Shown here: positions 1-11,900 of the stretch, piece by piece
Numbering within the stretch: position 1 is the stretch's first letter
Layout of the letters: the number at the start of each line of letters is the position of its first letter
Source: a virus
Virus genome (UHGV): UHGV-0199485
Direction: 5' to 3' (one strand)
Length of the DNA stretch: 11,900 bases
Notes under the pieces: generated by a model
What the model was told of the DNA's origin: nothing
The model's database searches: none
Seen by the model: only the letters and a program-made list of their open reading frames with translations
Program-made: the position numbers and the translations under genes

Positions 1-1524
1 ATGAAACGTGTAATCAGCTACATCAGATTCAGTTCTGAGCGACAAGCCAAAGGCGACTCACTACGCAGACAGTCTAAGATGGTTAATGACTGGCTTAAGG
101 CTCATCCTGAGTACTACCTTGACCAAGATTTATCTTTTCGTGATTTAGGTGTGAGTGGATTCACTGGTAAGCACTTGAAAGGTGGCTTAGGTGACTTTTT
201 AACCGCTATCGAGAAAGGGCTTGTTAAAGCTGGTGATACGCTCTTGATAGAATCTCTTGACCGTCTCTCACGTCAGGATATTGATATTGCTTCTGAGCTA
301 TTACGTCGTATCTTAAGGGCTGGTGTCGATATAGTCACACTGAGCGATGGTGAACATTACACACGAGAAAGTTTAAAAGACCCGTTAGCTCTGATTAAGT
401 CCATCTTGATTATGCAAAGAGCACATGAAGAGAGTCTGCGTAAGGCTGAGCGTATACAAGCTGCATGGGATGCAAAGAAAGAAGCTGCTAAAGCTGGTAT
501 CAAGATTTCTAAGCGTTGTCCTGCATGGCTTAAGCTTAATGATGACCGTAAGACCTTCTCTGTGATACCTGAGAAGGTAGAAACTGTGAGGAGATGCTTT
601 CAATTACGGTTAGAGGGTAAGTCTATTTGGGAGATTGTCAGGGCTCTTAATGATGAAGGTCACCAGACACTTAACCAGTACAAAGCAGGTAAGTTTGGTC
701 AAACCTCAGTGCAAGACCTTCTGAAAAATCGCTCTGTAATTGGTTACTTCACACCTAAAGGCTGTGAGGAGATAGCTGGTTATTTCCCCCCTATCATCCC
801 TGAGACTGATTTCTACAAAGTCCAGCAACTATCATATTCTCGTTACGGTAGAAAACCTGCTTCAGATAAACCATTGAGTGTGAATCTCTTTAAAGGTGTT
901 ATCCGTTGTTCTGAATGTGGTCATGCTTTGATTATCACAGGCTTTAGCGATACAAGAAACGGGATTTATCGTTGTCCTCTTCGTAATGAAAACCGTTGTA
1001 GTGCTAAAGGACTTTCACGTAAGCAAACCGATGGTACATTGCTTGCCCTGCTATCCCGTATAGACCGATTTGATAGCGATATGACGAATACCATAGACAC
1101 ACTGAAGCTACACCGTGAACACATCTCAAGCAATATTGAAAAGCTGGTACAGCTATCACTTGAAATTGAAGACTTGTCCGCTATTACCAGCAAACTAAAA
1201 CAGTTAAAAGGTGAGCTATCACAGGTTAATGCGGATATCGAGAAGGAGACACAACGCCTTAAATCTATTGATGTTGGTTGTTTGTCTGATTGTGACTTGA
1301 CTACAAAGGCGGGAAGGATTGAAGCACAACTGATAATCAAAAGTGCTGTTAAAGAGGTCATTTTAAATACTGCTAAACGTCGCTGTAAAGTGACTTTTCA
1401 CAACGGTAAGGTAATTGACTTACCTATAACAGAAGACCCCTCAGAGAATGTTACAGAGGCTATACAGTCGCTTTCTGAAGTCACTGAGAGGGGTTTAATA
1501 GATGTTGATGAGGTTATCATATAG
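1..1524 (+). CDS. Large serine recombinase (integrase-type)
   Basis: 507-aa ORF starting at window base 1. N-terminus MKRVISYIRFSSERQ places the resolvase-fold catalytic serine about 10 residues from the start. A long C-terminal extension follows, with Cys pairs (CSECGH ... YRCPLRNENRC, zinc-ribbon-like) and a coiled-coil tail, which is the large serine recombinase architecture. RBS and promoter lie outside the window. Confidence 0.85.
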   Translation: MKRVISYIRFSSERQAKGDSLRRQSKMVNDWLKAHPEYYLDQDLSFRDLGVSGFTGKHLKGGLGDFLTAIEKGLVKAGDTLLIESLDRLSRQDIDIASELLRRILRAGVDIVTLSDGEHYTRESLKDPLALIKSILIMQRAHEESLRKAERIQAAWDAKKEAAKAGIKISKRCPAWLKLNDDRKTFSVIPEKVETVRRCFQLRLEGKSIWEIVRALNDEGHQTLNQYKAGKFGQTSVQDLLKNRSVIGYFTPKGCEEIAGYFPPIIPETDFYKVQQLSYSRYGRKPASDKPLSVNLFKGVIRCSECGHALIITGFSDTRNGIYRCPLRNENRCSAKGLSRKQTDGTLLALLSRIDRFDSDMTNTIDTLKLHREHISSNIEKLVQLSLEIEDLSAITSKLKQLKGELSQVNADIEKETQRLKSIDVGCLSDCDLTTKAGRIEAQLIIKSAVKEVILNTAKRRCKVTFHNGKVIDLPITEDPSENVTEAIQSLSEVTERGLIDVDEVII

Positions 1525-1538
1525 TTGAGCTTCTATCG

Positions 1539-2312
1539 TCAGTAGCGCTTGTTAGGATTAACAGACAGCCTCTTCAAAACATTACCTGCACCAGCATTAT
1601 TAAGCACTTTCGAAGCTTGCCCATTAGCGGCATCTGAGAAGGTGCTTTTTCCATTCTCAACTCTGACACTTTTACTACAATTGATACGGGCTTGAAGTTG
1701 CTCATTAGAAAGTTCACTCGCAGAGCGATTATATAGCTCCTGACACATCAACATACCATTACCTAAACTTGTCGTAGTGTTCCCAGTGTTCTTTTTACTG
1801 GTAGCACCACCATCATTCGTGGTAGCGGTCTTGCCAGTAGCAGATGAAATATCAGTTTGCCCTACAATGGCTTTGAAGTTAATTTCCTGAAAAGTTAACT
1901 GGATTCTCAGACCATTTGAAATACCAACATCTTTAGAGGCTTTAAAGCTCGTGATAATGGAATCATCAATTTTAATTCCGTCTTTACAGATGACTGAAAT
2001 AATCTGCTTCTGGTCACGCCAGCTTTCAAGAGTGTCGATGAAGTTTTCTACTAATTGCCCCTGACGAGTTAATAATAAGCTACCTTCATAGCCAACTACA
2101 ACGACACCACTAATAGTGATTGTTCTGGGTGCTCTTTGCACATTATCTGTGACGGTTTGCCCTGATTGCATGTTCTGTGTAGTAACCTGCATAGGGCTGT
2201 CAAATTCCATGTTTTCAGTAGCTGATAAGGTTAAGAAGGCATCTACATTGTCTCTTAAGTGGAAATAGATGCCGTCTTTGCCAGTGTAACGAAGCTGATT
2301 AGTGTAAATCAT
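1539..2312 (-). CDS. Putative phage tail protein directly downstream of the tape-measure gene (distal-tail-protein position)
   Basis: ORF track gives 264 aa from an in-frame TTG at 2333. The first ATG (2312-2310) is preceded by AAGGAG at 6-nt spacing, so a 257-aa product from 2312 is preferred. Beta-rich N-terminal half, then a Thr/Asn/Gly-rich linker. The functional call rests on gene order after the tape-measure gene, not on a recognised motif. Confidence 0.5.
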
Positions 2313-2388
2313 TAAATTCTCCTTTGATTTCAAAGACTTAGTGCATTTTAATCATTTTTAACCAAGCCTTTGATATTTAAGTGTTTTA

Positions 2389-2458
2389 TCTGTTAAGCGT
2401 GAGCTACGTGAAAAATAATTTTTGGTGGGTATATCTGTTCAGGAGATTTCACGTAGCA
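2389..2458. repeat. Copy A of a 70-bp conserved dyad element (candidate activator-dependent promoter or recombination-type site)
   Basis: tctgttaagcgtgag-CTACGTGAAA-33 bp-TTTCACGTAG-ca. 68/70 identical to copy B (4534-4603). The 10-bp inverted-repeat arms are at 2404-2413 and 2447-2456. It lies between the tape-measure stop (2470) and the start of the next leftward gene (2312). Confidence 0.8.
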
Positions 2459-2469
2459 TTCGACTATTA

Positions 2470-4518
2470 TCAATCATCTTCTGGGAATGATGAACTTAAT
2501 AGCGTAGCTTCTGCGTATTGGTCGTAGATATTACTGCTAAAGGTCATAAAGCTGGTTTCATCTGGTTTAATGGCAACTTCACCACCAAGTGAAACTTTCA
2601 CAGGCTCCTGAATACGTTTGCTCAAAGCACTAATTTCATCTCTCAGGCTTTGGATATCCGTATTCGTTAATGCCGCATCTTGTCTCATGGTGATTAATTC
2701 TGGATGCTGGAAGTTAGCAAGATTCATAGCTGCACTATTAAACCAACCTTTCACATCGTCCATAGTAAATACTGGCTTAAGTCCAGATTCTTTAGCTAAC
2801 TCTGGTAATTTAGCTTGTGCTTCCATTCGTTCAGGTGTAGAGGCTAATCTTTCATAACCTGCATAGAGAGCGCTACCAGCTAATAGCATATTCCCAAGAT
2901 TCAGTCTTGATGGTTTCCCATTCTTTCTATTCACGTTATCCGCTGTAGTATCAGCAACCTGACCTAATCTTGTGATAGCAGTCATAAGCCCGTAAATACT
3001 TCTGGTTACACCAACAACTTTATTTACAGCAATAACACCAGCCAAGACTTTTAAACTATTAATCAAGCCAGAACCTAAAGCATCAACAACTTTCTTTTGT
3101 TCATCGGTTAAACCACGGTAAGCTAATGTCACCTCATCGAAGAACGCTCTTACCCTGTAACTGATATCAGTCAGGCTATCCACACCACTTGACATATCAG
3201 TCATCAAGCTACCAAGAGATTCACCAAGACTTTTACCGCTTCCACCTAAACTGTTTAAAAGCGTTGTTAAGCTTCGTGTGAAATCTTGCAGACCATTTTC
3301 AGAACCTCTGAAAATATCCGTTAATGAATTGTTCCAAGTATTCTTTAAGTTCCCTAACATTGTCTGCGTAGAGTCCTGAATAGCTTTCCAGCCACCTCTT
3401 GAATTAATCTGTGAACCAAGTTCTTTAGCAAACTTAGGGAGTGCATCAGAGGCTTTAACATCACCATTTTTCATCTTATCGAAAAGCTGTTTTTCAGTCA
3501 GACCTAAAGCCTTTGCAAATGCCTGAGTAGCACCCGGTAAAGCTTCAGATAGTTGCCCCTTAAGCTCTTCAGCCATCACCTGACCCTTAGAAGCCATCTG
3601 CGATACTGCGGTTAATGCTCTTTGAATCTGCTCATCTGAACGACCCATTAAACGAGCATATCCAGTTAAGTTTTTAAATAACTCTTCTGCCCCTTCAAGA
3701 CCCATCGTGTTCTTTGCAGATGCACCAAATGAAGCAAATTGCGCCTGTGTTTCGGTTGTGTCCATACCAGTAATTTGAGTTAAATCTTGAATGAACTTTT
3801 TGACCTGTGTACTTTGGTCACCGAATACGAAATCAATACTTCTTTCCGATGATGCACGTTGAAGGCCAACTTCCATAATCTTCTGATAAGCGGATAGTAC
3901 AGCCTGAAAGCTGATAAATGCACCTGCTGTTTTAACTGCTGCTGAACTCAAACTATCAAGACTATTAGCTGCTTTGTCACCGTTAATGCTGGTGGATGTA
4001 TGACCTCTGGCTTTAGCAATTGCTTCTCGTACACTTGAATTTAGTTTAGCAAGGGCTTCATTGAATTTTGAATTATCCATTGACCCAGCTTTAGCAGATA
4101 GCCCGTAAAACTGAGATTTGATGTATTTCTGCAAAATAGGGTCAAAGCCTTTTAACTTGCTCATGTTAGCCTGATAAGCTGCTCTTACTGCTCTATCACC
4201 TGTAACCCTTCTTGGCCTCGATTGTCTTGGCGGATTAATAACGTCATTAACCTGACTTGTGAAACGGAAAGCTTTAGTATTTTTTGCTCTAGCTTCCAGA
4301 CGGTCAAAAGTCTTATTAATTTTTCCTTCCATTGACTTCAAAGAAGCCGTTAAATTGCTGTCAAGTTTCTTGGTATCGACCTTAAACGCCCTATTCAAAT
4401 TACGTTCAATTCTTTGTGCTGACTGCAAAGCTGCCTTTTCAACTCTTTGCAAGCCCTTAACAACGTTCTCGCTGAAGCCTAGCTCAACGATAAAACTATC
4501 AACTGTGAATTTGCTCAT
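2470..4518 (-). CDS. Phage tail tape measure protein
   Basis: 682-aa ORF. The central segment ...SDEQIQRALTAVSQMASKGQVMAEELKGQLSEALPGATQAFAKALGLTEKQLFDKMKNGDV... fits the conserved tape-measure domain pattern. Helical N-terminal region and Gly/Ser-rich stretches are also typical. GAGGTGA lies about 10 nt upstream of the ATG. Confidence 0.75.
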   Translation of the reverse strand: MSKFTVDSFIVELGFSENVVKGLQRVEKAALQSAQRIERNLNRAFKVDTKKLDSNLTASLKSMEGKINKTFDRLEARAKNTKAFRFTSQVNDVINPPRQSRPRRVTGDRAVRAAYQANMSKLKGFDPILQKYIKSQFYGLSAKAGSMDNSKFNEALAKLNSSVREAIAKARGHTSTSINGDKAANSLDSLSSAAVKTAGAFISFQAVLSAYQKIMEVGLQRASSERSIDFVFGDQSTQVKKFIQDLTQITGMDTTETQAQFASFGASAKNTMGLEGAEELFKNLTGYARLMGRSDEQIQRALTAVSQMASKGQVMAEELKGQLSEALPGATQAFAKALGLTEKQLFDKMKNGDVKASDALPKFAKELGSQINSRGGWKAIQDSTQTMLGNLKNTWNNSLTDIFRGSENGLQDFTRSLTTLLNSLGGSGKSLGESLGSLMTDMSSGVDSLTDISYRVRAFFDEVTLAYRGLTDEQKKVVDALGSGLINSLKVLAGVIAVNKVVGVTRSIYGLMTAITRLGQVADTTADNVNRKNGKPSRLNLGNMLLAGSALYAGYERLASTPERMEAQAKLPELAKESGLKPVFTMDDVKGWFNSAAMNLANFQHPELITMRQDAALTNTDIQSLRDEISALSKRIQEPVKVSLGGEVAIKPDETSFMTFSSNIYDQYAEATLLSSSFPEDD

Positions 4519-4533
4519 TGTTCATATTTCACC

Positions 4534-4603
4534 TCTGTTAAGCGTGAGCTACGTAAAAAATAATTTTTGGTGGGTATATCTGTTCAGAAGATTTCACGTA
4601 GCA
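4534..4603. repeat. Copy B of the 70-bp conserved dyad element
   Basis: Same sequence as copy A with two substitutions (left arm CTACGTAAAA; core CAGAAGA vs CAGGAGA). It ends 15 bp upstream of the tape-measure ATG and directly follows a terminator-like hairpin. Confidence 0.8.
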
Positions 4604-4610
4604 CACATAC

Positions 4611-4653
4611 AAAAAAGGGAGAAACTACCGAATAATATCGATAATCTCTCCCC
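4611..4653 (-). terminator. Candidate rho-independent terminator for the 234-aa/71-aa transcription unit
   Basis: On the minus strand a 6-bp GC-rich stem (4617-4622 pairing with 4647-4652, GGGAGA/TCTCCC) with a 24-nt loop is followed by U6 (complement of A6 at 4611-4616). It sits about 50 nt after the 71-aa gene stop. The large loop weakens the call. Confidence 0.45.
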
Positions 4654-4701
4654 GTGTTATAGATTCGATAGAACCTATCTCATACACCCAACCAATCTTT
4701 T

Positions 4702-4917
4702 TTAATGCCTGACAAGATAATGTAATTCCGTTTCACCTATGATTTGAGCATCAGAAGGGATACGGTCAATACACCATTTTGGAATCTTGCGTGTTTTTGG
4801 TTTGTGTGAGGTGATAATTTGATGTTTGGTTTTAATTCTTAAGGCTGGCTTAGTTTGTAACTTTAAGTTTTCACAAACAGACTTAATAGTTTCATAGCGT
4901 TCTGTTAAATCAATCAT
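4702..4917 (-). CDS. Hypothetical small basic protein (71 aa)
   Basis: GAGGTG lies 4-5 nt upstream of the ATG. A 22-nt gap after the preceding gene suggests co-transcription. Lys/Arg-rich; no recognisable motif. Confidence 0.45.
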   Translation of the reverse strand: MIDLTERYETIKSVCENLKLQTKPALRIKTKHQIITSHKPKTRKIPKWCIDRIPSDAQIIGETELHYLVRH

Positions 4918-4939
4918 TCATCACCTCACATATGCATAA

Positions 4940-5644
4940 TTAAACAGCCTTGCTAAATTCTCGTGGAACACTCAGAAAATCATTGAAGCTGATAATCTGT
5001 GCCAACTCTTGACGGTACTCCTTAGCCAGCGCTTGATGGTCACTAATCAGCTTAGCCAGTCTTGATTTCAGCAAATTAATCTCATTTTCTCTTGCTTTCA
5101 TCAGTTTCTCTTTGGCAATTTCTTCAAGCTCAGCTTGTGATTTATCAGCAACAATTAGAGACAGTTGATGTGGCGCTCTGATGGCCCTTTCCGTACGAAT
5201 AACCCTTTGACCTTCTGGTAAATCTGCAATCACTTTACCAATCTCTACAGGGTCATACCCCCAACCGTCACGGTCTAGTCGAGAGAAATAAGCATAAGAA
5301 TTGGTTTGAAGCTCCATCAAAATAGCCATTTCGTCGATTTCGTCTTCAAGCTTGGACTGAATTTTCTCGTAAACACTTCTCATTGCTTCTTGAGAGTCTT
5401 TAATAGCTTGGAAATATCGGCGTTGCAGCTTCAGTTTCAAATCAAGCTCACATTCCTCATTCATCGAAAAATCAATTTCAACTCTTGGAATCTCGAGTGG
5501 TTCTGGTGGAATATATGGACCTTTATTTACTTCGTGTGATTCCCGCCAAGCTCTATCAAAAGATTCACGCAAACTTAATTCGTGAATATCAAGTGCACTT
5601 GGTTTGTTTTCGATAATCATTTCATGTTCATCACGGATAGACAT
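4940..5644 (-). CDS. Hypothetical acidic, predicted helical/coiled-coil protein (234 aa)
   Basis: AGAGGA lies about 9 nt upstream of the ATG. Glu-rich, with a C-terminal heptad-like segment (ELEEIAKEKLMKARENEINLLKSRLAKLISDHQALAKEYRQELAQI). No catalytic motif recognised. Confidence 0.6.
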   Translation of the reverse strand: MSIRDEHEMIIENKPSALDIHELSLRESFDRAWRESHEVNKGPYIPPEPLEIPRVEIDFSMNEECELDLKLKLQRRYFQAIKDSQEAMRSVYEKIQSKLEDEIDEMAILMELQTNSYAYFSRLDRDGWGYDPVEIGKVIADLPEGQRVIRTERAIRAPHQLSLIVADKSQAELEEIAKEKLMKARENEINLLKSRLAKLISDHQALAKEYRQELAQIISFNDFLSVPREFSKAV

Positions 5645-5676
5645 TATTATTTTTCCTCTTCTAAGATAATTTATGT

Positions 5677-5762
5677 TTCAGTTTTTAAAAAGCACACCTG
5701 ACAGCCTACGAACTTAGAAGAGACTTAAAAGCGTTTGCCAAGTGTGCTTTTTAAAAACTGAA
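5677..5762. promoter_or_regulatory. Perfect 21-bp inverted repeat separated by 44 bp (hairpin or operator candidate)
   Basis: TTCAGTTTTTAAAAAGCACAC (5677-5697) and its exact reverse complement GTGTGCTTTTTAAAAACTGAA (5742-5762). It lies about 30 nt upstream of the 234-aa gene start codon, inside the predicted leader. Confidence 0.5.
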
Positions 5763-6010
5763 TAGCCCTAGATAATTTCTTATAAAGGGCCATTCATAAG
5801 GTGAAGAAATTAAAAGAACATCTAAAGGATTCAAATGAATGAACAAAGATTTTTGATATGGCCTATTTAGTGTGGGCTAAATAAGCCATGACGAAAAGCA
5901 TTGCACCTTTCAGAATAACTATCCCTAGATGTAGATGGAATTGTTGAAAGAAATAAGAGAGAATTGCTCTCCCTATAGACTTCGGATAGAAGACTATCCT
6001 CATATATACA

Positions 6011-6039
6011 ATTATGTCATGCTCAAGGTTATTTGTCAA
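6011..6039 (-). promoter_or_regulatory. Candidate sigma70-type promoter reading leftward toward the 234-aa gene
   Basis: Minus strand TTGACA (6039-6034), 17-bp spacer, CATAAT (6016-6011). Confidence 0.35.
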
Positions 6040-6140
6040 CAGCTTTTTAACAGATTGGTAACATCAATTCTTATTTACTGTGTTACCTGCCAAGCAACCA
6101 ACAAATAAACCCAAAACTGTCCATAATACAATTAACGTCA

Positions 6141-6464
6141 TTAGTGAACCCTCATAGAATCCGCAACCAAAATATTGTCAGCGTACAGGATTGTCACAGC
6201 ACCTTTCAGAAATTGCTCTGGGGAAATATCGTATTTGTTCGTTTGCTCGATAACAAGCCTTTTCATGCTTGAGTCGCTAACGGGAAACATAAAACGTGGT
6301 TCACCAGTTTCAATCCCCTGAATAAAATCTTCAATTGCTTCTGAGTTTTCAGCCATCAGTTTCAACAGCCTGTCAAAGTCAATTGACACACCGGAATCAG
6401 TGAAAGCCTGTACCATCATGGCGGTGTCGGTATCAATAAAAATCTGTAATGGAAAGTTGTTCAT
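6141..6464 (-). CDS. Hypothetical acidic protein (107 aa)
   Basis: AGAGGA lies about 9 nt upstream of the ATG. A 15-bp palindrome AGATAG-ttt-CTATCT (6483-6497) sits immediately upstream of the RBS. No recognisable motif. Confidence 0.55.
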   Translation of the reverse strand: MNNFPLQIFIDTDTAMMVQAFTDSGVSIDFDRLLKLMAENSEAIEDFIQGIETGEPRFMFPVSDSSMKRLVIEQTNKYDISPEQFLKGAVTILYADNILVADSMRVH

Positions 6465-6651
6465 TTCTTAAAATCCTCTATGAGATAGTTTCTATCTAAT
6501 CCTATAAAACACATCTCAGACCTGCCAAAATAGCCATTCTGAGGCCAATAACCATGCGGGTTACAGAGGGAGTTGCACTGGCTGGTAAGGTAATTTATCA
6601 AATTAAGGTGCAACTCTGCCTGTAAAGTGCATTCTACCGTTACTTAGATGG

Positions 6652-7077
6652 TTATTTTGAATTGTCTTTATTAATCAATGATTTAACGTAGAAATACTGC
6701 CTCCGTGAAATACCATATTTTTCTGTGATGTATCGCTGAGATTGACCAGCATTTATGGCCTGAGTGATATCATCACGGTTATAGCGGTTACCACGGGATT
6801 TATATTTGTCACCATCCACATCTTCTGATGTATTGAAGTCTTCAATCAGCTTAATTGCATCGTGAAGGTCATCTTCTGAGGCATAATCGAAGGTATGGAT
6901 AATCTCAAAATCACCAGTATCTGCTGGTGCATTCTTCCATCTGGAGAAGCGGGATTTTAATTGCTGGTGTGTGAAAGGTTCAGCATTACGAGTTAAATCT
7001 TTCCATGTTCCGCTATTCTCACGGACAAGGTGGCCTCTATGGCGATAAAACGCATGATAATCAAATGTGCATAGCAT
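6652..7077 (-). CDS. Putative transcriptional regulator with C-terminal helix-turn-helix (Mor/C-like or resolvase-HTH-like)
   Basis: C-terminal segment RDDITQAINAGQSQRYITEKYGISRRQYFYV fits a DNA-binding HTH. The start codon overlaps the stop of the upstream gene (TAATG, 7075-7079), implying translational coupling. Confidence 0.55.
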   Translation of the reverse strand: MLCTFDYHAFYRHRGHLVRENSGTWKDLTRNAEPFTHQQLKSRFSRWKNAPADTGDFEIIHTFDYASEDDLHDAIKLIEDFNTSEDVDGDKYKSRGNRYNRDDITQAINAGQSQRYITEKYGISRRQYFYVKSLINKDNSK

Positions 7078-7367
7078 TAAACCCCCAGCCTATCCGCTAA
7101 TTGATGGACCTTTGCGCTTAACACCTGAATCATTGAGCAACCTGCTACTGCGGACTGTGCTTTGAGTAGTTCCAGTTGGTCCGTTGTGATTCTGATGGCC
7201 TTAGAACCCTCTGCAACACCCTTAACATTATCAAAAGGGGTAAGGGTTACCGGCTCTTTTAGAAGCTCTCCAACAAGCGCCGTATGCTTCATATCAGGGT
7301 ATTTGGCTTTGATTGCTGCCAGTCGTTCAAATGCCTCTGGCAAAAGGCGCGTAACTGTGTGAGTCAT
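7077..7367 (-). CDS. Ribbon-helix-helix-type DNA-binding protein (96 aa)
   Basis: AAGGAG lies 8 nt upstream of the ATG. C-terminal half KAIRITTDQLELLKAQSAVAGCSMIQVLSAKVHQLAD fits the beta-strand / helix / G-x-S turn / helix pattern of RHH repressors; the N-terminal half is RHH-like but less canonical. First gene downstream of the leftward promoter. Confidence 0.5.
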   Translation of the reverse strand: MTHTVTRLLPEAFERLAAIKAKYPDMKHTALVGELLKEPVTLTPFDNVKGVAEGSKAIRITTDQLELLKAQSAVAGCSMIQVLSAKVHQLADRLGV

Positions 7368-7402
7368 TGTAAAATCTCCTTAAATCTCTTACTCATACTA
7401 CA

Positions 7403-7453
7403 ATCTTAACATTTATTTAACATGTTGTCAACATCTCATTTACATGATATTAT
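7403..7453. promoter_or_regulatory. Divergent back-to-back promoters sharing a 13-bp palindromic operator
   Basis: Leftward: TTGACA (7431-7426), 17 bp, TAAGAT (7408-7403). Rightward: TTGTCA (7425-7430), 17 bp, TATTAT (7448-7453). The two -35 hexamers overlap inside the palindrome ATGTTG-t-CAACAT (7422-7434). Confidence 0.5.
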
Positions 7454-7503
7454 GGTTATAGGGGCTGATACAGGTGCTGTTTCCTTTCACAAAAGGAAAA
7501 TTA

Positions 7504-7680
7504 ATGCATGATTTTTTCACAGCAATTATTGAATCTCATCGTTTTAGCTCGTTGGGCTTTGCGGTATTTATTGTGCTATTGGTGTTTTGCGTTATGAATC
7601 GAGTCATTACAAAAAAGACAAAGCTTACAATTCGACTTAAACTTCTTCGTGTTGAGATAGAGATTTCAGTAAATAAATAG
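7504..7680 (+). CDS. Small predicted membrane protein (58 aa)
   Basis: ATG at 7504 is preceded by AAGGA at 6-nt spacing; the ORF track starts at an in-frame GTG at 7474. One hydrophobic segment (LGFAVFIVLLVFCVM) is followed by a basic tail. It is the only gene downstream of the rightward promoter. Confidence 0.4.
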   Translation: MHDFFTAIIESHRFSSLGFAVFIVLLVFCVMNRVITKKTKLTIRLKLLRVEIEISVNK

Positions 7681-7689
7681 CTGGTGGCC

Positions 7690-7986
7690 TTACCGGCACT
7701 TTCCCTTGATAATATTGGTGGCCCTCAGATTACCGGGGTCACCGTCTTTTAATCGTAGCTGGTGGACTGAATCCCAGATATCATAATGATACAGCACTGC
7801 AAACCTCAAAGCGTCAATCTTTAAATCTGTCACACCATCAAAAAAGAAATAATTCTTTCCTTCCTTCTTCGGTCGAATCCGGTAAACCTCCCCATGAGTA
7901 TCTTTCAGAAGATGACCTTCACGAGAAATGCTGTAGCGCCTTAATAGATAATCTTTGTATCGTTTTTCACCGTTATATTCTCTCAT
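7690..7986 (-). CDS. Hypothetical 98-aa protein translationally coupled to the replication initiator (weak HNH-like motif)
   Basis: Its ATG overlaps the rep stop (ATGA, 7983-7986) and GGAGGT lies 5 nt upstream. C-terminal VHQLRLKDGDPGNLRATN loosely resembles an HNH-type motif but lacks the canonical residue pair, so a nuclease assignment is tentative. Confidence 0.5.
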   Translation of the reverse strand: MREYNGEKRYKDYLLRRYSISREGHLLKDTHGEVYRIRPKKEGKNYFFFDGVTDLKIDALRFAVLYHYDIWDSVHQLRLKDGDPGNLRATNIIKGKCR

Positions 7987-8897
7987 TGGATACCTCCACC
8001 TGCATAGTACATTTTAGGCTTAACCCTTTGCTTCTTATTTTCACTAACTACTTTCTTCTTTGGTGTGAAAGAAAAGTCATCATCGTCACCATCATCAAAG
8101 TCATCGAGGTCATTAACCTTGTTCTTTAGCTTCGCCATTTCAATGCGTGATTTAATCTCTGCTTTGCGTTGTGCTTTTTTAATAGCCTCTTCACGCTCTG
8201 ACTCTTCATCAAGGTAATCATCGAAGGGGTCCATCTCATCATCAGTGGCGGGGCACTGTGTGTTTTTATGGTCACTATCAACATTCACATCAGAGATTTT
8301 ATCCTCCTCTAAGTCAGATGTTTTAGAAGCCTCTTTAGTAGCTTCACTATCAAGGTCAGATTCATTCATAGAGAGAAAATCATTTAATTCATCCAAAGAA
8401 AGAAAGTCATCTTCTTTATTGTTATTAATAAGTTCTTTCTTGTTATTACTGTTATTATACGTGTCAAAGATTTTGACTGACTGAGTAAAAAATTTTGACT
8501 CAGTGGGTAAAGAATTTTGACTCAGTGGGTCATCTTTCTTGACTGACTGAGTAACTTTAGACTCCAGCTTTGCCTTTCTGGCTTCCTTAGCTGTAAGCTC
8601 TGTTAAAACTTCCGGTACTTCATCAAGTGAATAAACTTTAATAACACACTGATTGCTTGCAACGTTAGTTTTCTTGATTAAACCATGTGCCTCAAGTCGT
8701 TTCATACATGCAATCACGGATGTTCTTGTGATTCCAGCATACTGACCAAGATGAGCATATGAAGGGGTATAATATTGCCCCTTATCGTGATAAAACTTCT
8801 GTTCATTCAACATGACAGTGTAAATAATACGGTCGGCAGCTTTAACGCCATTAGTCATCTGATAAATACGGTCATCAAACATGTGGAATTTTTCCAT
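7983..8897 (-). CDS. Replication initiator protein (winged-helix, RepA_N-like N-terminal domain) with acidic C-terminal tail
   Basis: Preferred start is ATG 8897-8895 (MEKFHMFDD...), preceded by AAGGAAAA at 7-nt spacing; the ORF-track start at 8954 has no RBS. N-terminal ...DRIIYTVMLNEQKFYHDKGQYYTPSYAHLGQYAGITRTSVIACMKRLEAHGLIKK... resembles the DNA-binding domain of RepA_N-type initiators. Iterons and an AT-rich tract lie inside the coding sequence. The C-terminus is a poly-Asp/Glu tail (DDFDDGDDDDF). Confidence 0.6.
   Translation of the reverse strand: MEKFHMFDDRIYQMTNGVKAADRIIYTVMLNEQKFYHDKGQYYTPSYAHLGQYAGITRTSVIACMKRLEAHGLIKKTNVASNQCVIKVYSLDEVPEVLTELTAKEARKAKLESKVTQSVKKDDPLSQNSLPTESKFFTQSVKIFDTYNNSNNKKELINNNKEDDFLSLDELNDFLSMNESDLDSEATKEASKTSDLEEDKISDVNVDSDHKNTQCPATDDEMDPFDDYLDEESEREEAIKKAQRKAEIKSRIEMAKLKNKVNDLDDFDDGDDDDFSFTPKKKVVSENKKQRVKPKMYYAGGGIQ
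8471..8554. repeat. Four iterons at exact 22-bp spacing (candidate origin of replication inside the rep gene)
   Basis: TTTTGACTGACTGAGTAA (8471), TTTTGACTCAGTGGGTAA (8493), TTTTGACTCAGTGGGTCA (8515), TCTTGACTGACTGAGTAA (8537). An AT-rich tract (about 8395-8465) flanks them on the low-coordinate side. On the coding strand they encode a low-complexity linker. Confidence 0.55.
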
Positions 8898-9159
8898 TAT
8901 ATTTTCCTTTTTAAAAATAAAACAAAGAAAGGGCTGACCACGTATAGTGACCAACCCCAGAGGGAGTGAATTAATTAGAAGATGGACTGATAAAGGAACT
9001 CAGAAGCCTGAGCGATTACGCGAGTATTAACAGCAAAAGGAAAAGCCTTGATTGAATAAGAGGCCGTGAAAATCTGTCAATACCCTGACGCCTCCCAACG
9101 TTGTAACCTCTTAATGTTCTGAGTTCTTTTATCAGCCCATATAGAAACTATAACAGATG

Positions 9160-9214
9160 TGATTATAAATTGCAACAATTATTTCACAGAATAATTACTG
9201 TTTGATTATAAATT
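9160..9214. repeat. Two exact 12-bp direct repeats TGATTATAAATT in the non-coding control region
   Basis: Copies at 9160-9171 and 9203-9214; on the minus strand each contains TATAAT. Function unknown (operator or -10-like boxes facing the rep gene). Confidence 0.4.
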
Positions 9215-9763
9215 AAGCAATCAAGCTAAAGGGTATTGACAAAGGGCTTGACAAGATTTTACCCTTTTAAAAGATACTTAAAAGATTCCGTTAAACAGGG
9301 TTTTCTTTCTGGTTTCTTCTCTCTCTTAAAAGCCTTTTAAGAATCCTATATAGAAGCAGTAAGTCTCAAAAACTCTGTGGGATAATTTCTAAAACACATC
9401 TCTCAGACTTCACTAGACGCATTCTAAGCCCCTAAATCGGGTAACTCTGGCAATCACCTTAAGCACTCTGAAAATAGCTTCAAAACTCGCTACAGAGCTT
9501 CCTGTGAACTGGTCTATGAATAGCCTAAACTGGTTGATAGGTTTGATTAAAATCTGTACAGATAATATCCAGCCTCTAATTTTTTTATAAAATCGTATTA
9601 GTCCCTCTTCATTTCTCTTCCACCGAATTTTTCGAAAATATCACAAGGCAGTGTATAGCTGCTAAGTACCCGCCACACCAGCTATGTGACCCCCTTTGCA
9701 GAATTTTAAAATATCTATTGACTTTCTATGTGAACTGTTATAAAGACCGCTCCATCTCTTAGG

Positions 9764-9856
9764 CGTACCGATATAGCATACTAAAAAGGTATAGCTAACC
9801 CCCTGTAAAAACCATACCGATTAGCCTTGTAAAACACTTTATCGGTACGTTATACT
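9764..9856 (+). promoter_or_regulatory. Candidate recombinase promoter overlapped by symmetric TACCGAT motifs (possible res-like or autoregulatory site)
   Basis: TTGTAA (9827-9832), 18 bp, TATACT (9851-9856). Inverted repeat CGTACCGAT (9764-9772) / ATCGGTACG (9841-9849), plus a third TACCGAT at 9815-9821. Confidence 0.35.
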
Positions 9857-9891
9857 TAACTCATCAAATGAGTAAGGCAAATGAGTATATT

Positions 9892-10434
9892 ATGGCTAAC
9901 ATCGGTTATGTTCGAGTTTCAACAATCCAGCAGATTACAGACCGTCAACTTGAAGGGGTCGTACTGGATAAGGTATTTACTGATAAAGCATCTGGGAAGA
10001 ATACAGACCGTCCACAACTAAAGGCTATGCTCGATTATGTTCGTGAAGGTGACACTATCCATGTACACGACCTGTCACGTTTAGGGCGTTCTACCGTGGA
10101 TGTATTAACGCTGGTGGATAAACTTTCACAGAGAGGTATCAAGGTTCACTTTCACAAAGAAGGTCTGATAACTGGTGACGATAACCCCACGTCTAAGATG
10201 ATTCTCACAATCTTTTCAGCAGTGGCTGAAGCTGAACGTAAAATGATGCTTGAGCGTCAACGAGAAGGCTATGAAGCTGCTAAAGCTGCTGGTCGTGTAG
10301 TTGGAAGGGGTAACGGTAAAGCGATTGACAGAGAAGGTATTAAAGCTGCTCTTGCTGCTGGTAGTTCAATCGCTAAAGTAGCCGCTCAATTCAACGTTGC
10401 CAAGTCAACTGTACAGCGTATTAAAGCTGAATAA
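9892..10434 (+). CDS. Small serine recombinase (resolvase / DNA invertase family)
   Basis: N-terminus MANIGYVRVSTIQQ with the catalytic serine, a resolvase catalytic core (..DLSRLGRS..), a Gly-rich linker and a C-terminal HTH (SIAKVAAQFNVAKSTVQRIKAE). The ORF track starts 8 codons upstream at 9868; 9892 is preferred from the family N-terminal pattern and promoter position. Neither start has a strong RBS. Confidence 0.85.
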   Translation: MANIGYVRVSTIQQITDRQLEGVVLDKVFTDKASGKNTDRPQLKAMLDYVREGDTIHVHDLSRLGRSTVDVLTLVDKLSQRGIKVHFHKEGLITGDDNPTSKMILTIFSAVAEAERKMMLERQREGYEAAKAAGRVVGRGNGKAIDREGIKAALAAGSSIAKVAAQFNVAKSTVQRIKAE

Positions 10435-10460
10435 TTTCTCATCACCTATATAGATTCATG

Positions 10461-10484
10461 GCCTCCTTAATTGGGGGCTTTTTT
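10461..10484 (+). terminator. Rho-independent terminator after the small serine recombinase gene
   Basis: GCCTCC (10461-10466), loop TTAATT, GGGGGC (10473-10478) with one G-U pair, followed by T6 (10479-10484). It lies 27 nt after the stop codon. Confidence 0.6.
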
Positions 10485-10490
10485 GTATCC

Positions 10491-10582
10491 TCTAAGCGTG
10501 TACTACGTGATGATTCGGATAAGAATTATCCTCATAAAATCTCCTGAACACTTACCCACCCTCAGAAATAACTTTCACGTAG
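10491..10582. repeat. Copy C of the dyad element, with the core in opposite orientation and 29 bp longer
   Basis: Shares TAAGCGTG-nn-CTACGTGA (10493-10510) and TTTCACGTAG (10573-10582) with copies A/B. Its 62-bp core contains AAATCTCCTGAACAC-TTACCCACC, the reverse complement of the A/B core GGTGGGTATATCTGTTCAGGAGATTT. Confidence 0.7.
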
Positions 10583-10655
10583 GAAATCGTTAAGGGTTTT
10601 ATAGTTACACTATGTGACCAACTGCATGAATAGCGTTATATATCCCTGTATATAG

Positions 10656-10671
10656 CACTATATATATAGTG
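10656..10671. promoter_or_regulatory. Perfect 16-bp palindrome CACTATATATATAGTG (operator-like)
   Basis: Exact palindrome in the intergenic region between element copy C and the 3' end of the 277-aa gene. A TATAGCA motif also recurs upstream of the recombinase (about 9771-9795). Confidence 0.3.
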
Positions 10672-10896
10672 TCTGGAGAGGAACGACTAACACGATACAG
10701 TTTACCCTGAAAAGAGACTTCACAGATTCTTTATATATTTCAATGAGTTAGGATAAAAAGGGACTATACCGATACTGCATAGAATCTGTGTAAAACTGCT
10801 TAGATATTTGAAGAAATACCGTTAAATTGCATAGTCATAGGGGTTGGAACAAGCCCAACTACACCTGTTTATGTCCTGTTATTTACAGGCATAGCA

Positions 10897-11730
10897 TTAT
10901 TGGTTAATTAATTCATTCGACTCTATATTATTACCTTTTTCTTTTTCCTTTTTAATTTTAGACTCAACCATATCTAACATTTTTAATGCCTGTGTTGAAG
11001 TTAGCTCTTTCTTTTGTCGTAGCGCGTTACGTATGGTAGAAGCTTCAATATCAGAAACTGTTAAAAGTTCTTCTACCCTACTCTTCAATTGCTGTAATGA
11101 ACGGCTATTATCAACTTTAAAGAAATCATTCATTACATCAAGTGAGGCAACAATCAAATCCTGTAGTCTCTCTTTTTCTTTTGCTATATTTTCAATAGTT
11201 TGTTTTTCAATAGATACTGACTCTTTTAAGTTGCTAATCTCTTTAAGCATCTGTTTCCTTGCTGTCTCAAGGTCTTCTGTGACCAACTCTTCACGCTTAC
11301 CACGCTCTACTTCCGCTTTAATATCAGCATCAATTTTAGCATTTTCTTTCTCTTCTTCTCTGGCAACCCGAACCTTTAACCCCGTTAACCTGATTGAATT
11401 AAGGTATTCCTTTTCTTTTGAAAGATAAATATTTTCACTGTGTTTATCTGTAGCCCATTTTTGAGCAAGAGAAAGTAACCATTGAGCATAAGGAGTAATA
11501 ACAGCTAGCACACTTCCAAAAAAGACAGGTGCTAACAGATAATGTACATAAAAATATTCCTGAGACAGAATATAATCTATTCGAAACTTAACAGGAGCAT
11601 CACTCATAAAGAGCATTGCCAAGTTAGGCCAATTGAACCATACCCATGCAAGAATGATATATCCCCATAATGGGCTTTTAATCCTATCGTTTATTGCTTG
11701 CATAGTAGAATCTAACCATCCATCACTCAT
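10897..11730 (-). CDS. Membrane-anchored coiled-coil protein (277 aa), function unknown
   Basis: GAGGG lies 6 nt upstream of the ATG. Two N-terminal hydrophobic helices (WGYIILAWVWFNWPNLAMLF; VHYLLAPVFFGSVLAVITPYAQWLL) are followed by about 180 aa of Glu/Lys-rich heptad-like sequence. Confidence 0.6.
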   Translation of the reverse strand: MSDGWLDSTMQAINDRIKSPLWGYIILAWVWFNWPNLAMLFMSDAPVKFRIDYILSQEYFYVHYLLAPVFFGSVLAVITPYAQWLLSLAQKWATDKHSENIYLSKEKEYLNSIRLTGLKVRVAREEEKENAKIDADIKAEVERGKREELVTEDLETARKQMLKEISNLKESVSIEKQTIENIAKEKERLQDLIVASLDVMNDFFKVDNSRSLQQLKSRVEELLTVSDIEASTIRNALRQKKELTSTQALKMLDMVESKIKKEKEKGNNIESNELINQ

Positions 11731-11806
11731 AGCTAACCCTCGGAAATCTTATCTTTCTGTCTATCATAACCACAAGCATCACCTTTAGGAACCATCTGAA
11801 ACGGGA

Positions 11807-11854
11807 GGTGTATTTAGACCTTGCTAATCTTCATCAGACACGTTTAAATACACC
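11807..11854. other. 13-bp imperfect inverted repeat with 22-bp spacer upstream of the 277-aa gene
   Basis: GGTGTATTTAGAC (11807-11819) and GTTTAAATACACC (11842-11854), one mismatch. A possible -10 TATGAT (complement of 11763-11768) lies between it and the gene start. Confidence 0.3.
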
Positions 11855-11900
11855 ACCTAAAGCGATACAATCGCGCTATTAGTTTTTATGGTGGTAAAGA

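Follow-up and report, generated by a model that had tools for sequence, protein, structure and literature searches.

What is a tape measure protein (TMP) gene doing in a DNA element that carries almost nothing else of a phage tail? The question is raised by positions 1,539 to 4,518 of UHGV virus genome UHGV-0199485, a stretch of 11,900 nucleotides (nt) with about a dozen genes in its open reading frame (ORF) list; "the window" below means this whole stretch. The first-pass annotation, which was made from the sequence alone, left the choice between the decayed end of a prophage and a satellite-type element that supplies its own tail-length determinant and takes the other virion parts from a helper, and it took the latter for an undescribed strategy. 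We believe that the satellite idea is the best-supported reading, while the claim of novelty for the strategy does not stand. With a probability of roughly 0.6, the element is a satellite of a virulent Felix O1-like myophage (Felixounavirus), and its own TMP and tube initiator are swapped into the tails of the helper. Its two tail genes are copies from lytic phages of the Felix O1 type and no other virion gene was found, so the element probably parasitises phages and assembles tails of a hybrid kind.

The tail region and the recombinase gene next to it contain the following features (positions in the window).

1-1524, plus strand: large serine recombinase of 507 amino acids (aa), the integrase of the element (Pfam, PHROG 95); it adjoins the attachment site attP.

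1539-2312, minus strand: tail tube initiator (Dit-like), 257 aa (PF21821, PDB 9ndy_A); the mechanical ORF extends to 2333.

2389-2458, minus strand: first copy of a 70-nt cassette, immediately upstream of the tube-initiator gene.

2470-4518, minus strand: TMP, 682 aa (PF20155, PHROG 4036, PDB 9ndy_F).

4534-4603, minus strand: second copy of the 70-nt cassette, immediately upstream of the TMP gene.

4616-4653, minus strand: intrinsic-terminator-like hairpin (a 16-pair stem, then a T run), which closes the operon upstream of the TMP cassette.

The profile searches proposed with the first-pass annotation were run, and the 682-aa protein is indeed a TMP. It matches Pfam PF20155 (TMP_3) with 65.3 bits at a cut-off of 41 (E 7.8e-18), PHROG 4036 ("tail length tape measure protein") with E 1.4e-86, and the solved TMP gp017 of phage Bas63 (PDB 9ndy_F) with E 1.6e-70, the N-terminus, the core and the C-terminal tip all being aligned. 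The downstream protein, previously described as beta-rich, is the tube initiator: ORF 1539-2333 (minus strand) matches Pfam PF21821 (Dit_like) with 72.8 bits at a cut-off of 24.2 (E 3.5e-20) and the Bas63 "tube initiator protein gp018" (PDB 9ndy_A) with E 5.8e-127. These profile and structure matches of both proteins are far beyond chance. Translation of the tube initiator probably begins with the ATG at 2312; an AAGGAG ribosome-binding site precedes it, and the product has 257 aa. In Bas63 the tube initiator forms a hexameric ring between the baseplate hub and the tail tube, by which the three-fold symmetry of the former is adapted to the six-fold symmetry of the latter; its C-terminal arm of about 100 residues passes through the baseplate, and it is with its last 25 residues that the TMP is seen to dock on the hub and spike (PMC12609058).

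The remaining observations of the first-pass annotation on the layout hold as well. The recombinase ORF ends at 1524 and the stop codon of the tail gene lies from 1539 on, so the two genes converge with 14 nt between them. No further structural-looking gene was found: the other ORFs of at least 50 aa gave no capsid, portal, terminase, sheath, tube or baseplate match in Pfam, PHROGs and NCBIfam, an absence that rests on the sensitivity of profile searches.

Whose tail do the two genes belong to? In a comparison with the whole 87-kb genome of the Felixounavirus phage ekra, homologues were found only for the tube initiator (78% aa identity) and the TMP (28% aa identity across the full length, tblastn); the TMP gene lies directly upstream of the tube-initiator gene, as in the Felixounavirus gene order. 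Residues 12-195 or so of the tube initiator, its tube-like domain, are almost identical to Bas63 gp018, and the final 65 aa or so are diverged. At the DNA level, window 1754-2283 is 93-96% identical to Felixounavirus genomes. This segment has matches of 90-96% nucleotide identity in 212 phage records (megablast), which bear Escherichia, Salmonella, Shigella, Enterobacteria or Felixounavirus names, together with three generic "Phage", one Staphylococcus and one Campylobacter; the 20 of them that were listed are mostly genomes of 83-89 kb.

The TMP is a mosaic: its residues 1-40 are 80% identical to the ekra TMP, the remainder 10-48%, and the C-terminal motif LLSSS[FY]PE is common to the window TMP and the phage TMP. 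Among the 50,697 phage records searched, no TMP is more than 60% identical to that of the window. With 682 aa it is 53-60 aa shorter than the phage proteins (735 aa in ekra, 742 aa in Bas63); in eight relatives of the element the TMP has 679-725 aa, and in the 120 best TMP relatives it has exactly 682 aa in every case. Two non-coding features also point to the same phages.

9228-9358, plus strand: non-coding Felixounavirus-like stretch of 130 nt, about 70% identical to a phage intergenic region.

10460-10483, plus strand: terminator after the small recombinase gene, identical to a Felixounavirus terminator.

The non-coding stretch maps to ekra 79877-80029, which is intergenic and upstream of gene ekra_108, and the two share tandem TTGACA boxes and the palindrome CTTAAAAGCCTTTTAAG. 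Its phage matches are found in 59 records only, with Salmonella, Escherichia, Shigella or Enterobacteria names; the 15 of these that were listed are genomes of 86-90 kb, the size of a Felixounavirus. The stretch may be a helper-type promoter or regulator site by which infection is sensed. The terminator is exact over 23 nt to ekra 87089-87111, and a match of 27 nt at 93% is found at ekra 36234-36260.

Both tail genes are under purifying selection. The dN/dS ratio of the TMP among relatives is 0.14-0.30; that of the tube initiator is 0.06-0.11, namely about 0.1 among the satellites and 0.06 for the tube-like domain against ekra. For the family the range is put at 0.09-0.30. These values indicate working genes rather than relics. 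The TMP alleles of the relatives are themselves mosaic, with pairwise identities of 46-95%.

Insertions into the tail genes were also observed. In 7 of 30 evenly sampled E. coli copies, a transposase lies beneath the match to the TMP and tube initiator. Another insertion splits the tube initiator in an IMG/VR contig (L010, 5215-7600), where P4-like Psu/Delta/Ash genes follow. A 2-kb insert in a Citrobacter TMP was considered as an intron or homing endonuclease of the ICP1-like kind; it is an element of the IS21 family (L016, 11050-13061). The interruptions by insertion sequences (IS) may be due to selection against expression of the TMP, or simply to decay.

Each tail gene stands behind a copy of the same cassette. 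The copies at 2389-2458 and 4534-4603 form a 97% direct repeat that brackets the TMP gene, and they consist of the palindromic ends CTACGTGAAA/TTTCACGTAG around TGAACA-N18-TATTTT. A third copy is found elsewhere in the window.

10503-10582, plus strand: third cassette copy, diverged, on the strand opposite to copies 1 and 2.

The cassette is present in 285 of the 5426 complete E. coli genomes searched and in no phage record; it is not found in one relative of the element (L007). It could serve as a promoter/operator that is portable, or give recombination a handle by which TMP alleles are swapped. A cassette before each tail gene, together with the strong terminator, suggests separate but co-regulated expression. 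A scan with the sigma-70 consensus gave 27 sites against 32.4 in shuffled sequence; since the sites are no commoner than in shuffled sequence, the scan is uninformative on promoters.

Is the window a complete element or a fragment? A metagenome contig of 12.7 kb with an identical TMP (L001) runs through window 2098-11900 and then directly into 1-2283, window 2098-2283 being present twice, once at each contig end; the 11900/1 junction is also crossed by a second contig (L002). Since base 11900 is joined to base 1 in L001, the window is a closed circle of 11,900 bp. The examination of the flanks that had been proposed for capsid, portal and terminase genes is answered by the same contig: no morphogenesis module adjoins, because a circular window has no flanks.

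The integrated form of the element is found in the E. coli chromosome. Relatives of the window are present in 569 of the 5426 complete genomes, and every match is chromosomal; in the 20 best of these records, 57-71% of the window is covered at 87-93% nucleotide identity. In the two integrated copies that were examined, an island of about 12.2 kb with the gene order of the window splits yecE between yecD and yecN. The large serine recombinase adjoins the left junction, which corresponds to window 11827-11900; the right junction corresponds to window 10614-11831 (attL and attR in yecE). This mapping places the crossover within an imperfect inverted repeat that is the attP.

11804-11857, no strand: attP, the imperfect inverted repeat I9; crossover at about 11827-11831.

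The attP is intact on the 11,900-bp circle, and the recombinase at 1-1524 has the domains Resolvase, Recombinase and Zn_ribbon_recom of Pfam, each over its cut-off, and matches PHROG 95 (integrase) with E 4e-79. Considering the closed circle and the mapped junctions, the window is the excised form of the element and not a prophage fragment. It is the excised circular form of a complete 11.9-kb integrative element of E. coli that targets yecE.

The family is not confined to this site. One genome (NZ_CP123592.1) contains a second family copy between tonB and yciI (L018, 2639714-2650840), with a recombinase 35% identical to that of the window and a TMP of 710 aa; the tail pair and its neighbours are arranged as in the window. 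DNA of the TMP and tube initiator has matches in 475 of the 5426 complete E. coli genomes, all chromosomal, at up to four places per genome; 183 of them cover at least 80% of the query. The several copies per genome and the tonB-yciI site indicate that the family has diversified its integration sites. The host is E. coli, and relatives sharing the synteny come also from Escherichia sp. and Citrobacter; a scan of genome contigs gave two loci only, so that the range of host species is poorly sampled. In NR, the exact TMP is filed under the name "MAG TPA ... Caudoviricetes sp."; the circle was therefore probably submitted as a viral metagenome-assembled genome.

Features expected of a phage satellite are found here: the element is discrete and integrative, and its recombinase and attachment sites are its own; profile searches show less than a full set of virion genes, the TMP and the tube initiator alone matching structural families; and there is a specific genetic link to a helper, consisting of the tube-initiator DNA, the TMP ends, the terminator and the non-coding stretch. 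How would such a satellite work? Upon infection by a Felix O1-like phage, the element would excise and replicate. The TMP and tube initiator would be expressed from their own repeated 70-nt promoter-like cassettes and would replace gp17 and gp18 of the helper in the core of the growing tail, and the hub, spike, wedges, tube, sheath, fibres, capsid and packaging motor would all be supplied by the helper.

With a helper-like tube domain, a helper-like N-terminus of 40 residues in the TMP and a hub-docking C-terminal tip, the pair would fit the parts of the helper; the diverged TMP interior and the C-terminal arm of the tube initiator would set it apart from the pair of the helper. The surfaces conserved in the pair are exactly those that touch helper-encoded parts. 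As the TMP is shorter by 53-60 residues, the predicted tails are about two tube rings (about 8 nm) shorter. The element may gain by evading a block aimed at tails, by having satellite particles paired selectively, or by interfering with helper tails. We infer that the element is mobilised by the helper; the assembly of the free circle from a metagenome and the naming of the exact TMP as that of a viral metagenome-assembled genome are indirect hints toward induction, packaging and transfer.

A narrower version of this proposal is put forward tentatively. The matched pair of TMP and tube initiator would be the sole virion contribution of the satellite, which would have no capsid-remodelling, packaging or chaperone gene ("tail-core-only"); the pair would both mark the satellite particles by their shorter tails and sabotage the tails of the helper.

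Several points weigh against a satellite of Felixounavirus. Induction, packaging and transfer are predictions. The circular contig could in principle derive from a tandem duplication, and not from excision. In the window we identified no pac or cos site, no gene that would redirect the terminase, no factor for capsid size and no tail chaperone, and no nuclease with the DNA-binding domain of the replication initiator (Rep) of this element was found in the phage records. The best identity of a phage TMP in the collection searched is only about 30%, so that the true helper may be unsampled. Finally, an IS element is present in or near the TMP in about a quarter of the sampled chromosomal copies, an observation that suits decay or counter-selection no less than an active satellite.

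The alternative that survives best, although we consider it unlikely, is a defence island without transfer. The TMP and tube initiator would be decoys or poison subunits that spoil tails of the Felix O1 type or, in a variant, would feed a tail-sensing abortive system; the population would be protected and the element would remain unpackaged. A helper-identical tube domain joined to a diverged C-terminal arm does have the look of a dominant negative, no packaging or capsid function was found in the window, and a conserved, possibly membrane-bound protein is encoded at the other end of the element. Interference with tail assembly is also known on islands (PMC11364771; Rta, PMC12987554). On the other hand, the 682 aa common to the best 120 TMPs, the preserved docking ends and the purifying selection are in excess of what a poison needs, and the element possesses full machinery for excision and replication, its free circle being assembled in a metagenome. 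In the PLE satellites of Vibrio cholerae the satellite TMP is a working part of the tail. As to a known defence system, PADLOC gave one weak match only, to LmuB (E 4.7e-4), on the coiled-coil region of the recombinase. The defence island is compatible with the data, but strict length conservation and the functions for excision and replication are explained less well by it; moreover, interference and transfer can coexist.

It is quite improbable, in our opinion, that the element is a satellite of another, unsampled helper, for instance a temperate myophage, and that its tail module stems from an old exchange with a Felixounavirus. The absence of a phage TMP above 60% identity would agree with this, as would the other ten or so genes without a phage homologue and the lack of a phage match for Rep. 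Against it stands the N-terminal domain of the tube initiator, which is 93-96% identical to Felixounavirus in nucleotides and nearly 100% in amino acids at a dN/dS of 0.06; such near-identity implies a continuing constraint to fit the Felixounavirus tube and hub. The non-coding likeness and the common terminator are likewise limited to phage records with enterobacterial names, which are Felixounavirus-sized where listed.

It is very improbable that the element is a plasmid-like integrative island or a mobilisable one that spreads by conjugation and takes the tail genes along as passengers. The Rep with its iterons, the resolvase and the free-circle assembly would suit this reading, but profile searches of the window detected no relaxase and no family of the oriT type or of conjugation, every E. 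coli copy is chromosomal, and nothing in the family is more constant than its tail genes. A plasmid origin was considered separately and rejected: megablast gave no match in PLSDB (72,556 plasmid records).

The decayed prophage end, in which two genes of a full tail operon remain beside an integrase and which owes its appeal to tail genes abutting the integrase as at many prophage ends, is extremely improbable and is set aside: with its 11.9 kb the element forms a complete closed unit that has an attP and a replicon of its own, its genes are under purifying selection, and the same gene set with exact ends recurs in relatives of about 12 kb in yecE, at two chromosomal sites in all, with matches in hundreds of genomes. 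To our knowledge, phages related to Felix O1 are virulent and form no prophages.

The satellite of a Felix O1-like phage being the preferred reading, what do its remaining genes contribute? They are listed here.

4702-4917, minus strand: 71-aa gene beside the TMP gene, kept in all relatives.

4940-5644, minus strand: 234-aa helical protein, conserved; it holds the capsid-gene position of the E. coli satellites predicted in 2023.

6141-7986, minus strand: four conserved small genes (107, 141, 96 and 98 aa), syntenic in the relatives.

7983-8954, minus strand: replication initiator, 304 aa by gene callers (start 8897) or 323 aa (PHROG 8102/428).

8400-8550, minus strand: putative origin, four iterons of about 22 nt and then an AT-rich run, within the initiator gene.

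9868-10434, plus strand: small serine recombinase of the resolvase/invertase type (Pfam Resolvase, E 2.3e-37; HTH_7).

10897-11730, minus strand: conserved 277-aa protein, predicted to be helical throughout, with a hydrophobic N-terminal region.

The initiator matches the families of replication initiation proteins PHROG 8102 and 428 (E 7.5e-11 and 1.6e-10), and lambda O-like families as well; in Pfam it has weak helix-turn-helix (HTH; HTH_Crp_2) and DnaD_N matches. The iteron pattern has 6 matches where 0.21 are expected, and the repeats are visible in the initiator protein as a repeated TQSVK motif. By analogy, iterons within an initiator gene may recall the lambda O gene with its origin. 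A tblastn search with Rep against the phage records gave nothing; an anti-satellite nuclease of the Odn type in phages was sought in this way and dismissed.

Seven remaining genes are syntenic across the relatives, and none of them was assigned to a known family. The 71-aa protein has no match to a family (Pfam, PHROGs) or in PDB, and the 107-, 141-, 96- and 98-aa proteins have no significant family match in Pfam, PHROGs, PADLOC, NCBIfam and a relaxed Pfam search. Comparison of the 71-, 107- and 141-aa proteins with PDB sequences, including a tail chaperone and other solved folds, gave nothing meaningful, and the NCBIfam and relaxed Pfam searches of the small ORFs gave nothing usable. The 71-aa gene occurs in two allele classes (about 50% and more than 90% identity), independent of the TMP allele.

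Homologues of the 234-aa protein are found in E. coli, Shigella and Citrobacter only, every one annotated as hypothetical. Its gene also occurs in two allele classes (about 27% identity to the window), which assort independently of the TMP allele (L006-L018). Just upstream of it, an inverted repeat of 27 nt, 93% complementary and with a 32-nt loop, was noticed at 5677-5762. The single Rfam match of the window falls on this hairpin; it is to a plant miRNA model, with 33.6 bits against a gathering score of 90, and is spurious. No tRNA genes were found in the window.

The 277-aa protein is 86-90% identical across the relatives at the yecE site and matches only PHROGs without a known function; from a reading of its sequence it is possibly located in the membrane. 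The AlphaFold2 (AF2) models of the 234-aa protein (all-alpha with long helices, pLDDT 57) and of the 277-aa protein (helical throughout, pLDDT 58) are too poor, and therefore no fold search for a hidden capsid or scaffold protein was made with them. Between the initiator and the 277-aa gene, 8955-10896 is a region of variable cargo (the window compared with L006, L007 and L018), which in the window contains the small serine recombinase and in the relatives a DNA adenine methyltransferase (Dam), an HNH endonuclease or other small genes.

Why should this matter? Felix O1-like phages are used in Salmonella typing, in food biocontrol and in therapy cocktails. If the satellite reading is true, about one in eleven complete E. 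coli genomes (about 9%) matches the tail module of a dedicated parasite of such phages, and the island could cut their yield and spread by riding on them. The mosaic predicts the interfaces: the tube domain and the TMP ends must fit the helper, and the TMP interior and the C-terminal arm would give selectivity. If the tail pair is moreover the only virion contribution, this would be the first system in E. coli, a tractable host, that resembles the PLEs (elements akin to phage-inducible chromosomal islands) of Vibrio cholerae and acts against phages of the Felix O1 type. High-resolution structures of the helper exist (Bas63), and the selective incorporation of the satellite TMP over that of the helper, a question from the PLE work of 2026, would become testable.

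How does the element compare with known systems? Its nearest counterparts by homology are the helper genes themselves (Bas63 gp17/gp18; PDB 9ndy; PMC12609058), which are direct homologues in the same gene order. The phage pair, however, is part of a full operon for tail and baseplate, in which chaperones lie upstream of it and the genes for hub, spike and wedge downstream, whereas the window pair stands alone, each gene behind its own cassette, and the window TMP is about 70% diverged.

P4-like satellites, phage-inducible chromosomal islands (PICIs) and capsid-forming PICIs (cf-PICIs) resemble the element in being small, in integrating in E. coli and in needing a helper for virion parts. They typically have tyrosine integrases and temperate helpers, and profile searches of the window detected no AlpA, Pri-Rep primase or Psu/Delta/Sid, and no capsid, protease, portal, head-tail connector or small terminase.

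Closer in layout are the 224 E. coli satellites of Justusliebigvirus phages predicted by Barth et al. in 2023, which have a TMP and a "baseplate hub" (PMC10055350); their predicted helpers are Muut, Inny and Mt1B1_P17 (PMC10055350 / PMC10448857). The host species is the same, and nearly so is the order of an integrase, then on the opposite strand a Dit-like gene, the TMP, a small gene and further genes, followed by an HTH initiator and a small serine recombinase. Apart from a PF21821 protein and a TMP, neither has tail genes; in one satellite of this type (L019) the baseplate protein matches PF21821 with E 3.5e-29.

The differences are nonetheless substantial. Those satellites have a major capsid protein (Phage_cap_E in L019) and a decoration protein (PMC10055350), and the window has neither, the 234-aa helical protein taking the capsid position. 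Their integrase is a tyrosine integrase with sites at tRNA-Thr or lysR, in contrast to the large serine recombinase of the window and its sites in yecE or between tonB and yciI. The tail proteins of L019 and the window are not BLAST-similar; the small recombinases, 60% identical, are the sole proteins that are. In addition, strain C2 carries an element listed by Barth et al. at 2.52 Mb and a copy of the window family at 0.78 Mb, and with one of each at different loci the two are separate families. The identity of the element with the 2023 satellites was considered and is ruled out by the comparison of layout, BLAST similarity and locus.

The PLEs provide the precedent in strategy. A TMP, a tail chaperone and a baseplate hub are encoded by the PLEs themselves, and the chimeric tails that they assemble are about 10 nm shorter; in PLE11 particles the TMP and hub of the PLE are incorporated, the ICP1 counterparts are excluded, and the tails are 10 nm shorter (PMC12987554). 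The authors of that work also note tmp genes in other putative satellites, and putative tmp genes in some cf-PICIs (PMC12987554). The strategy that the first-pass annotation believed to be undescribed has thus been demonstrated experimentally for PLEs (Nature 2026; PMC12987554) and was predicted in 2023 for satellites of E. coli (PMC10055350). It is the widespread E. coli family itself that is not previously described in the searchable literature, where we found nothing on Felixounavirus satellites, on yecE-integrated satellites or on the family of the window element.

The comparison with PLEs is one of descriptions, their tails being known by experiment and the present element by its sequence. 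Host and helper are E. coli and a Felixounavirus here, and Vibrio and ICP1 there. The RepA_N initiator by which PLEs are recognised has no counterpart, there being no RepA_N in the window initiator (Pfam, PHROGs), and no capsid scaffold of the TcaP type, nuclease or other PLE effector was recognised in the window. Of the tail module of PLEs, a TMP and a baseplate-core protein are present here and no chaperone was recognised; the 71-aa neighbour is without a match, also in the sequence set that includes the solved PLE chaperone.

The likeness is nevertheless extensive. Both are small islands with a large serine recombinase and their own replication initiator and origin; a virulent (lytic) myophage is parasitised, as we infer for the window element; and each has its own TMP with a small baseplate-core protein adjoining. 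In both, the satellite TMP is shorter than that of the helper and about 20-30% identical to it, and the baseplate-core protein is the more similar of the two. The similarity goes further in the window element, where the tube domain of the tube initiator is near-identical to that of the helper, whereas BhuB of the PLE is 41% identical to its helper counterpart.

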